Notes: a model not told the origin generated them from the sequence alone. Counted from the first letter of the stretch, positions 47,465 to 62,035 are shown. The stretch is 64,000 nucleotides of DNA from an uncultured Thermoplasmata archaeon (GCA_963809035.1 CAWEHV010000002.1:1932570-1996569), one strand, 5' to 3'. Numbers and translations are program-made.

Positions 47465-47547
47465 TGCCGGGGCCAGGATTTGAACCTGGGTACTCCTGCG
47501 AGAGCAGATCTTGAGTCTGCCGCCTTTGGCCACTCGGCTACCCCGGC
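47465..47547 (-). tRNA. tRNA-Leu(CAA), no intron
   Basis: GCCGGGG/CCCCGGC acceptor, GCAGA-CTCAAGA-TCTGC anticodon arm, long variable arm, GGTTCAAATCC; TATA-like CATAAAG about 25 nt upstream. Confidence 0.96.
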
Positions 47548-55257: not shown

Positions 55258-56157
55258 CTACTCGACGGGCTTGAACTTCTTCCCTTCGGTGGAGAGATGC
55301 TCGATGAGCGTGTCGCGGATGGATTCGACCGGGCGGCCGAGCGGAAACCGTAGGGTGATCACTCCTCCGAACCGCTCGAAGACGCGGGTCGTATGAAGTG
55401 TCAGGCAGTGACCGTCGAACAGGGGTCGCCCGGTCAGGTCGGCGTCGTGGCCCCGTAAGAAGACGCGAACCCCGGACGCACGGAAGAGACGCTCGAGGTC
55501 CCTCCCGCCCCAGCTGGGGACTCCCGCTCGCCGGTTGCGGGACGCATCACACACCCCCCACACGACTTCGGAGAGACGGTCGTCGCTTACCTGGTCGAAC
55601 GCGTGGACCCATTCTTCCTCGGAGCCGACGAGGGGGAACCCGGCATGGGCGAGATAGACCCTTTCGGGAAGCACTGCCGCGAGCGGTCCACGCTCGAGCA
55701 GCGCCTCGATCCGGGTACATCGGGTCGCGTCCGGACCCCACATCGCATCTACCTCCTCCGGGAGGTCGTGCGGGAGCACGGGGATGCGGCGCGTGGTCTC
55801 GTGGTTTCCCTGGATCAAGAATACCCGGTCGGGGGCGGACGCCGCGAGCGAGAGCAGGTGGAGCGCGTTGGCGACCGATCCAGCACCGCAGTCGGGCGGA
55901 GCGCGGTCGACGTAATCTCCCAATCCGATCAGCAGTCGACGGACCCCTCCCGCGGAAAAACGACGCTCGACCTCCTCCACCGAACGCCAGTCCCCATGGG
56001 TGTCACCGAAAACGATGGCCTCCCGGAGCGATGCGCTGGGTATCCGAACGAAGGGTGGGTGCACCGGAACGGTGCGCTCGAGCCGGTCGAGCAGGGCGTC
56101 TGCTCCGTGCTCGTCCAGCCGAAGGATCTCCTCCGGTGCCGGCACCTCTGTCGACAT
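55258..56157 (-). CDS. PPP-family Ser/Thr phosphatase-like metallophosphoesterase
   Basis: GDTHG, GDYVDR, GNHE, HAG, RGH. Confidence 0.85.
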   Translation of the reverse strand: MSTEVPAPEEILRLDEHGADALLDRLERTVPVHPPFVRIPSASLREAIVFGDTHGDWRSVEEVERRFSAGGVRRLLIGLGDYVDRAPPDCGAGSVANALHLLSLAASAPDRVFLIQGNHETTRRIPVLPHDLPEEVDAMWGPDATRCTRIEALLERGPLAAVLPERVYLAHAGFPLVGSEEEWVHAFDQVSDDRLSEVVWGVCDASRNRRAGVPSWGGRDLERLFRASGVRVFLRGHDADLTGRPLFDGHCLTLHTTRVFERFGGVITLRFPLGRPVESIRDTLIEHLSTEGKKFKPVE

Positions 56158-56196
56158 CCCCGTGGATCCTCCGAACCACTATCCGGACCGGGTAAA

Positions 56197-56344
56197 TGCG
56201 GGGGGCCGGAGTTCCCGGCCGCCGGTCGGAGCGACCGGGCGGCCCTTTGAACCGGCGTATGCCCTAGGCAACAGGGTCCTAAGCCCTGCCTCGGTAGCCC
56301 CACCGGCGAGCGCCGGCGGTTTGGCCGAGCTGGAGCACCCCCGC
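56197..56344 (-). tRNA. tRNA-Leu(TAG) with two non-canonical introns: 27 nt at 21/22 (56294-56320) and 35 nt at 59/60 (56211-56245)
   Basis: The spliced product GCGGGGGTGCTCCAGCTCGGCCAACGAGGCAGGGCTTAGGACCCTGTTGCCTAGGGCATACGCCGGTTCAAATCCGGCCCCCCGCA (86 nt) folds as a cloverleaf; BHB-type motifs at both junctions. Confidence 0.9.
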
Positions 56345-56371
56345 ATCGGAAGGAAGGAAGGACCCGCGGAG

Positions 56372-56478
56372 TAGCCCCGGCAGGAGTTCCGGACCGCGGG
56401 CTCGCGGACCCCCGCGGCTTTCGAACCTGCGTCGCGAGATCCAGAGTCTCGCATGATTGGCCACTACACTACGGGGCT
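56372..56478 (-). tRNA. tRNA-Gln(CTG) with a 34-nt T-loop intron at 59/60 (56386-56419)
   Basis: AGCCCCG/CGGGGCT acceptor, CGAGA-CTCTGGA-TCTCG anticodon arm; BHB TTCG-AAA...CGGA-ACT; 73 nt after splicing. Confidence 0.92.
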
Positions 56479-56501
56479 ACAGGCGAGCCAGCGGGGGGCC
56501 G

Positions 56502-56509
56502 TTGATAAA
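56502..56509 (-). promoter_or_regulatory. TATA-like box of the tRNA-Gln/tRNA-Leu pair
   Basis: TTTATCAA on the minus strand, about 24-31 nt upstream of the tRNA-Gln 5' end. Confidence 0.55.
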
Positions 56510-56532
56510 CCATTCCCTCGCAACCCCGGCAC

Positions 56533-61963: not shown

Positions 61964-62035
61964 GGGCACGTAGATCAGCGGAAGATCGCTGCTTTCGCAA
62001 AGCAGAGGTCGGGGGTTCAAATCCCCCCGTGTCCA
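61964..62035 (+). tRNA. tRNA-Ala(CGC)
   Basis: GGGCACG/CGTGTCC acceptor with G3:U70, CTGCT-TTCGCAA-AGCAG, GGTTCAAATCC; CTTAAA box about 27-32 nt upstream. Confidence 0.96.

Follow-up and report, generated by a model that had tools for sequence, protein, structure and literature searches.

In published accounts, the position and motif of archaeal tRNA introns are linked to the type of EndA that removes them. The passages of PMC3239211 that deal with EndA types hold that the alpha4 and alpha2 enzymes need a strict 3-4-3 motif and state the same for alpha'2, the part of PMC5829648 concerned with cleavage attributes efficient cutting of non-canonical introns to loop-bearing EndA only, and Table 1 of PMC6379350 rates the alpha'2 EndA of Thermoplasma as narrow. 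In the experiments on A. fulgidus EndA within PMC3241643, the CSL was grafted into the enzyme at EKGDL 174-178; the wild-type enzyme 'hardly cleaved' a D-loop BHB intron, and a BHL was left uncut. Among organisms with introns in the T-loop, the relevant section of PMC3239211 describes Ca. Micrarchaeum acidiphilum ARMAN-2, in which pre-tRNA-Cys(GCA) has a 59/60 intron of the relaxed hBH form and pre-tRNA-Pro(GGG) has introns at 53/54 and 59/60. While reviews tie non-canonical introns to loop-bearing EndA, genus g1 of the Thermoplasmata, known from soil and peat, has many such introns with only a loop-less alpha'2 enzyme.

The locus analysed here lies on the minus strand of a 64,000-nucleotide stretch of DNA, all of which we call the window. 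The pre-tRNA-Gln(CTG) gene (107 nt, 56372..56478) comprises a 5' exon of 59 nt (56478-56420), a T-loop intron of 34 nt at 59/60 (56386..56419) with a strict hBHBh'-like motif, and a 3' exon of 14 nt (56385-56372), so that excising 56419-56386 leaves a mature form of 73 nt. It is followed, after an intergenic spacer of 27 nt (56345..56371) that is poorly conserved in alignment A1 (see below), by pre-tRNA-Leu(TAG) (148 nt, 56197..56344), which has a class II mature form of 86 nt with a 4-bp variable arm. This second gene is interrupted twice: exon 1 (56344-56321) is separated from exon 2 (56293-56246) by a D-loop intron of 27 nt at ~21/22 (56294..56320) with a strict hBHBh' motif, and exon 2 from exon 3 (56210-56197) by a T-loop intron of 35 nt at 59/60 (56211..56245) in which the BHB has an A57.G central mismatch. 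A minus-strand reading of 56150-56520 reproduced the start, end and spacing given in a preliminary description of this DNA, and neither of the two genes has a 37/38 intron, also as described there.

Each intron was scored for an outer helix, a 4-bp central helix, 3-nt bulges and an inner helix. The Gln T-loop intron has an outer helix of 5 bp, a central helix with all 4 pairs formed (TTCG/CGGA), bulges AAA and ACT, and an inner helix of 8 bp with a 1-nt offset. The Leu D-loop intron has 3 bp outside, a central helix of 4/4 that includes one G-U pair, bulges AAA and ACC, and 8 bp inside. The Leu T-loop intron has 5 bp outside, bulges AAG and ACT, and 7 bp inside; its central helix forms only 3 of 4 pairs, A57.G being mismatched, and since this mismatch is conserved in 28 of 29 genomes the intron is a relaxed BHB form, just as the preliminary description had it, with a single A.G mismatch. 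Thermodynamic folding captured these motifs in part. The RNAfold minimum free energy structure of the Gln T-arm mini-helix shows the 3-4-3 motif, but among the 13 T-arm mini-helices of the genome the exact motif was predicted for Gln(CTG) and Arg(TCG) alone; in the other 11 the weak, U-rich central helix was left open.

When the introns were excised, ARAGORN recovered complete cloverleafs of 73 nt for tRNA-Gln and 86 nt for tRNA-Leu, both with a 7-bp acceptor stem and a 5-bp T stem, and with T-loops TTCGAAT (Gln) and TTCAAAT (Leu). The spliced tRNA-Leu model also has U33, the anticodon UAG, G37 and the 4-bp variable arm. Removal of just one of the two Leu introns, either one, yielded no tRNA (2/2 controls). 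CCA is not encoded in either gene. A TATA-like box, TTTATC (56504..56509, minus strand), lies 26-31 nt upstream of tRNA-Gln, and TTTA[TA] occurs between -45 and -15 upstream of this gene in 26 of 29 orthologous loci; the 27-nt spacer between the genes is without such a box. Given a TATA-like box upstream of Gln and none in the spacer, a dicistronic precursor is likely, and the box is probably its promoter.

Standard scans of the unspliced DNA do poorly at this locus. ARAGORN called a mispaired 73-nt 'Gln' at 56406-56478 that extends into the intron and left Leu(TAG) uncalled. In a permissive Rfam scan a piece of Gln scored 25.2 bits against a cut-off of 29, its acceptor and T stems being mispaired, and tRNA-Leu(TAG) had no match; at the gathering threshold Rfam reported only two intact tRNAs in the window, Leu(CAA) at 47465-47547 and Ala(CGC) at 61964-62035. 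Over the whole genome there were 39 Rfam tRNA matches at E <= 1, 30 of them over the cut-off, against the 44 genes that we found. The expectation that many tRNAs of this lineage escape standard annotation thus holds as far as ARAGORN and Rfam are concerned, which missed or misfolded many of the tRNA genes here. Annotation by these programs under-counts tRNAs in the lineage, and MAG quality statistics that count tRNAs are distorted accordingly.

A BHB shape by itself is no better than chance, and BHB-like candidates number 351,870 in the 2.33-Mb genome. The significance of the introns comes instead from the restored cloverleafs and from conservation with covariation in 29 genomes. Only a handful of single candidates give a high-scoring tRNA across the junction, and when 1,419,440 pairs of candidates were tested genome-wide Leu(TAG) was the sole clean double. 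The other rows of the pair scan were flank artefacts of tRNA genes that were already complete, and were set aside.

A DNA search of 60 relatives showed that the whole Gln-Leu unit is present in genus g1. Alignment A1 comprises the window and 28 of the 36 g1 genomes (29 sequences); outside it are the unpublished G018, three for which no locus was obtained (G005, G031 and G036), two with contig-end or partial matches (G004 and G013), and two without a match that are 67% and 66% complete (G008 and G034, respectively). All three introns are kept in all 28 aligned genomes. Exon sequence hardly differs among the 29 sequences, in contrast to the spacer and the interiors of the introns, which vary. 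The outer 5 bp and central 4/4 of the Gln intron are found in 29/29 genomes, as are the outer 3 bp and central 4/4 of the Leu D-loop intron. For the Leu T-loop intron the outer 5 bp are likewise found in 29/29, with a central helix of 3/4 in 28 and 4/4 in one (G010).

Pair counting over A1 gave 100% of cells paired in the outer and central helices of the BHB motifs and 96.9% overall. The inner helix of the Leu D-loop intron has both-sided, compensatory changes in 7 of its 8 pairs, and in both T-loop introns the intron side of the central helix varies only between G and A, opposite the fixed U54 and U55. The covariation score of A1 was reached by 0 of 500 shuffles, a comparison in which related sequences may beat shuffles without any structure. 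The slid controls (33-60% paired) and the many pair types argue against kinship alone explaining the covariation. Restored cloverleafs, conservation and covariation therefore uphold the reading of the preliminary description that these are three BHB-type introns at non-canonical positions. That description had named intron-less copies of the same isoacceptors as evidence that would count against it; searches of the assembly, which is 90% complete, turned up no intron-less copy of either Leu(TAG) or Gln(CTG).

These two genes are part of a larger set. The genome (2 contigs, 2.33 Mb, 66% G+C, 90% complete) yielded 44 tRNA genes by a combination of BHB scans, ARAGORN and targeted searches. Of these, 24 are intact and four have a 37/38 intron only (Leu(TAA), Met(CAT), Trp(CCA) and Tyr(GTA)). 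Eleven have only a T-loop intron at 59/60, namely Arg(TCG), Ser(GGA), Ala(GGC), Asp(GTC), Gln(CTG), Glu(CTC), Ser(GCT), Ser(CGA), Arg(TCT), His(GTG) and Gly(TCC), and three have only a D-loop intron, at ~17/17a in Pro(TGG) and Arg(GCG) and at ~20a/21 in the initiator; Leu(TAG) and Lys(TTT) have both kinds. This makes 18 non-canonical introns in 16 genes, or about a third of the tRNA genes. Of these introns 13 interrupt a T-loop and 5 a D-loop, and between them they occupy three sites only (59/60, ~20a-22 and ~17/17a). Neither tRNA-Asn(GTT) nor a third CAT tRNA was found by BHB scans or by searches for orphan T-arms or anticodon arms; both may be encoded in the unassembled 10%, or have a split structure that our models do not cover.

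The 13 T-loop introns are 26-38 nt long, and in every one the 5-bp T stem forms the outer helix. Their central helix has 4/4 pairs in seven, 3/4 in five (always with A57.G) and 2/4 in Ser(CGA). In the D-loop introns of the initiator, Lys(TTT), Pro(TGG) and Arg(GCG), a good central helix and a 5' bulge form without a contiguous outer helix, which makes these introns HBh'-like. The initiator gene is single-copy in the assembly, and its D-loop intron is kept in 29/29 loci (G018 excluded) with compensatory changes in the inner helix. When the T-loop introns were compared pairwise for signs of common descent, only Asp(GTC) against His(GTG) rose above shuffled sequences (similarity 0.60 against a shuffled maximum of 0.28 +/- 0.06; 0/200 shuffles), the other 76 pairs being unremarkable. 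The similar inner parts lie at C2:1829658-1829690 in tRNA-Asp(GTC) and C2:888725-888756 in tRNA-His(GTG) of this genome (G000). This hints, weakly, that an intron may have been copied from one of the two genes to the other, the test being a weak one, since shuffling single nucleotides leaves hairpin symmetry uncontrolled. Elsewhere in the genome, outside the window, a 3' part-copy of tRNA-Ile(GAT) of ~48 nt runs from the anticodon stem to the 3' end (G000:C2:1497157-1497205), with the intact, intron-less gene ~39 kb upstream (C2:1458373-1458447); this is the pattern that an integrated element with tRNA-derived att sites would leave.

To follow the T-loop introns across relatives, we built a covariance model, R1, from alignment A3 of 31 T-arms in register; a MAFFT alignment of all T-arms (A2), in which the 3' stems were out of register, was dropped. 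On the present genome R1 found 12 sites at 33 bits or above and then nothing above 19.7 bits. It recovered 12 of the 13 known T-loop introns, Ser(GCT) being the one missed, and scored the Leu intron at 35.4 bits though this was outside the training set. All 36 g1 genomes (35 published and the unpublished G018) have between 5 and 12 sites each. Families f6, f14, f16 and f18 have 1-4 sites per genome; of nine such hits outside g1, five gave clean tRNAs after 59/60 excision (Arg(CCG) twice, Arg(TCT), Leu(TAA) and Ala(TGC)). No sites were found by R1 in families f2 (0/4) and f3 (0/2), a count to be read with the model's bias in mind, since R1 was trained on g1 and favours GC-rich inserts of ~30 nt, and so under-counts outside that genus.

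The f3 genomes G038 and G040, which are AT-rich and R1-negative, have 59/60 introns in both genes, of 13 and 10 nt, respectively, in Leu(TAG) and of 14 and 13 nt in Gln(CTG), and their Gln(CTG) has an additional 37/38 intron. The Gln and Leu 59/60 introns are common to families f1 and f3 and absent from the f2 genomes examined, and the Leu D-loop intron, which G038 and G040 lack, occurs among the genomes examined in g1 only. In this survey we accepted models with no excision or a single clean excision only, and checked the f3 loci separately; the multi-intron models that a permissive survey produced, many of them spurious and in AT-rich loci, were rejected. Leu(TAG) is intron-less in G037, G039 and G041 (f2), G043 (f4), G044 (f5) and G048 (f9), and Gln(CTG) in G043, G049, G052 and G053. 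Counts of solid Rfam tRNA hits, which are a rough proxy, come to 20-28 per genome for g1 genomes at least 90% complete (G018 included), against 23-31 elsewhere in the order and, for the most part, 34-41 in other families.

Two other arrangements of tRNA-Gln were seen in the survey. In family f2 (loci L113-L115, from G037, G039 and G041) the tRNA-Gln(CTG) of G037 has an insert of ~190 nt after the anticodon, both ends of which were seen, with the T-loop intact, and in G039 and G041 the insert extends beyond the end of the fetched locus; it contains repeated hairpin-like units with a common short motif. In G050 (L122, family f11) there are two tandem 5' parts of tRNA-Gln, the first of which reads through the T-loop into unrelated sequence and then a T run; it may represent a decayed or split gene, or one with a long intron in the T-loop.

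Orthologues of the genome's EndA at 60-89% identity all come from soil or peat MAGs titled 'Thermoplasmata archaeon', apart from one titled only 'bacterium', and orthologues from Methanomassiliicoccales are at 37-51%. Among the closest records are AcS1-67 and SubAcS13-64, which Table 1 of PMC9287336 lists as Lutacidiplasmatales. By EndA similarity, then, the host is a Lutacidiplasmatales-like member of the Thermoplasmata, the class to which it had been assigned in advance. Our literature search found no description of non-canonical tRNA introns in Thermoplasmata, Lutacidiplasmatales or Methanomassiliicoccales; the word 'intron' does not occur in PMC9287336, and Figure 7 and the supplements of PMC5829648, on tRNA disruption in 46 archaea, might bear on the question. 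BHB introns in the D-loop and at 59/60 are a kind of element already known from other archaea; the host lineage here is one for which no description of them was found.

The preliminary description had suggested that this lineage may have an atypical EndA. In the sense of an (alpha-beta)2 or epsilon2 architecture this was not borne out. The genome has two matches to the EndA catalytic domain, both within one gene, which encodes the 354-aa protein P0001 (G000:C2:1550780-1551844, minus strand). PF01974 and PF02778 each match it twice, and because two N-terminal and catalytic repeats are thus joined in one polypeptide P0001 is of the alpha'2 type, which we defined as two tandem EndA repeats in a single chain of about 290-350 aa. 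NCBIfam models of the PRK09300 type match it end to end with scores under their cut-offs. The closest solved relative is A. fulgidus EndA (1R0V/2GJW; 1R0V at E = 5e-30 over residues 34-336), and the catalytic triad Y292, H300 and K331 in the C-terminal repeat aligns with that of the A. fulgidus enzyme and is invariant in 27/27 aligned sequences.

The site of the specificity loop in P0001 reads RVGDR (residues 212-216), the same length as A. fulgidus EKGDL 174-178. Alignment with the AFU-CSL chimera 3P1Y forced gaps and mismatches at this site and scored lower, and none of the 27 aligned EndA orthologues has an insertion at the CSL/ASL loop site. Residues 187-354 align to 4-171 of M. jannaschii 1A79, 168 residues against 168, and as judged by length P0001 has no L3-type C-terminal insertion. 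The same single-gene architecture was found in all 80 orthologous loci kept, 26 orthologues aligned with no lineage-specific indel, and the enzymes of the Methanomassiliicoccales relatives are equal in architecture and length. At the loop-equivalent site the clade has a basic pair, [R/K]-x-G-x-R, where A. fulgidus has E-K-G-D-L, and the second arginine is absent from the aligned orthologues of Methanomassiliicoccaceae and Methanomethylophilaceae. By architecture the enzyme is thus an ordinary 'narrow' EndA, specificity as such being unreadable from sequence. A match to the RtcB ligase (G000:C2:801049-802352) changes reading frame at about 801930, which may reflect an indel in the assembly or a genuine frameshift.

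Taken together, these data make it very probable that the locus consists of two functional tRNA genes, probably co-transcribed, with three BHB introns that are spliced by EndA and RtcB. We infer the following course. Transcription from the TATA-box promoter upstream of tRNA-Gln would give one Gln-Leu precursor, in which each intron-exon junction would fold into two bulges separated by a 4-bp helix. For the T-loop introns, nucleotides 54-57 of the T-loop would pair with the 3' end of the intron, with the T stem outside and the intron hairpin inside. The single alpha'2 EndA, P0001, would cut in both bulges, and RtcB ligase would join the exons to give tRNA-Gln(CUG) and tRNA-Leu(UAG). CCA, not being encoded, would be added after splicing.

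As to RNA, part of the stretch is represented in 20 sequencing runs, of which six are RNA libraries where its share is low. Contigs of four metatranscriptome runs contained unspliced Gln/Leu sequence of close relatives (window 56246-56518) or tRNA-Gln of other organisms, and one RNA-library contig spans the spacer and the Leu D-loop intron; this unspliced material may derive from precursor transcripts or from contaminating DNA. The contigs of the four runs contained no spliced joint, and contigs cannot show its absence. The lack of spliced RNA in these contigs would fit with interrupted genes that are decaying pseudogenes or scars of mobile-element integration, and the genome does hold a tRNA-derived fragment, the tRNA-Ile(GAT) part-copy. 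That reading is very improbable, however, given that the exons are nearly invariant in 29 genomes while the spacer and intron loops vary freely, that compensatory changes maintain the pairing of the intron helices, and that these are the sole genes for both anticodons, as is the D-loop-interrupted gene for the initiator tRNA. The same lack of direct evidence for removal in the RNA-library contigs would equally suit hairpins that persist after maturation as expansion segments in the T-loop or D-loop. All elongator tRNAs need the elbow formed by the D-loop and T-loop, and a hairpin of ~30 nt in either loop would disrupt it. Moreover, the inserts sit exactly at 3-4-3 BHB sites, and the intron side of the central helix co-varies with fixed T-loop bases, so that we give retention as little credence as decay.

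Excision of the introns by some means other than the alpha'2 EndA alone, involving a second subunit, a cofactor, or prior modification or folding of the tRNA, is improbable too, if less remote. The poor cleavage of non-standard substrates by wild-type A. fulgidus alpha'2 EndA (in the experiments of PMC3241643) speaks for it, as do the lack of an insertion at the specificity-loop site of P0001 and the four D-loop introns without a contiguous outer helix; and a second endonuclease subunit might have escaped detection in an assembly that is 90% complete. On the other hand, both catalytic-domain matches fall in a single gene, every EndA orthologue fetched is likewise encoded by one gene with no lineage-specific indel in those aligned, and in the systems studied, as the relevant part of PMC3241643 puts it, archaeal BHB cleavage requires no further factor. 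Splicing by P0001 and RtcB is therefore the reading that we prefer, with the proviso that cleavage by a loop-less alpha'2 enzyme is not a given in the light of the biochemistry in the cited parts of PMC3239211 and PMC3241643.

The strict Gln T-loop and Leu D-loop introns might be within reach of a narrow alpha'2 EndA. The A.G-mismatched T-loop introns and the HBh'-like D-loop introns, one of which is in the sole initiator gene, are harder to reconcile with such an enzyme, and because several introns have relaxed motifs the lineage does not fit the link that published work draws between intron position and the type of EndA. It is conceivable, though we hold this with more doubt than conviction, that a loop-less alpha'2 EndA gained broad specificity, extending to non-standard positions, HBh' D-loop introns and A.G central helices, by a route other than L1, L2 or L3, and that this allowed T-loop and D-loop introns to spread lineage-wide into about a third of the tRNA genes, the initiator included. 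A possible lead to such a route is the basic pair R212 and R216 of the RVGDR segment, which corresponds to EKGDL in A. fulgidus. The lineage offers a direct biochemical test of the determinants of EndA specificity.

The present genes share features with several known systems and differ from each. The multiple-intron tRNA genes of Thermoproteales were reportedly described by Sugahara et al. in 2008. As in that order, a high share of the tRNA genes here have non-canonical BHB introns, in some cases two per gene; in Thermoproteales, however, EndA is an (alpha-beta)2 enzyme with the Crenarchaea-specific loop and the intron positions are far more varied, whereas only three sites are used here. With ARMAN-2, as described in the relevant section of PMC3239211, the lineage shares insertion at 59/60, the use of T-loop nucleotides as the exon half of the BHB, and genes with multiple non-canonical introns. 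The ARMAN-2 EndA, though, is a three-unit epsilon2 enzyme with a specificity loop where ours is a loop-less alpha'2, and the T-loop introns here are GC-rich hairpins of 26-38 nt found in 13 genes per genome.

The D-loop HBh' intron of Methanopyrus kandleri pre-tRNA-Glu(UUC), in the account given within PMC5829648, provides a parallel of another kind, being a relaxed D-loop motif in a euryarchaeon whose EndA has no specificity loop. That EndA is nevertheless (alpha-beta)2, and relaxed introns are few in M. kandleri; here the D-loop intron of Leu(TAG) is a strict hBHBh', and the relaxed ones are those of the initiator, Lys(TTT), Pro(TGG) and Arg(GCG). For the strict motif the nearest counterpart is pre-tRNA-Thr2 of Aeropyrum pernix, which also has a canonical BHB motif in the D-loop. 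In the experiments of PMC3241643 the A. pernix intron was cut by a loop-bearing (alpha-beta)2 EndA and hardly at all by the alpha'2 EndA of A. fulgidus, and it is this result that makes the present lineage notable.
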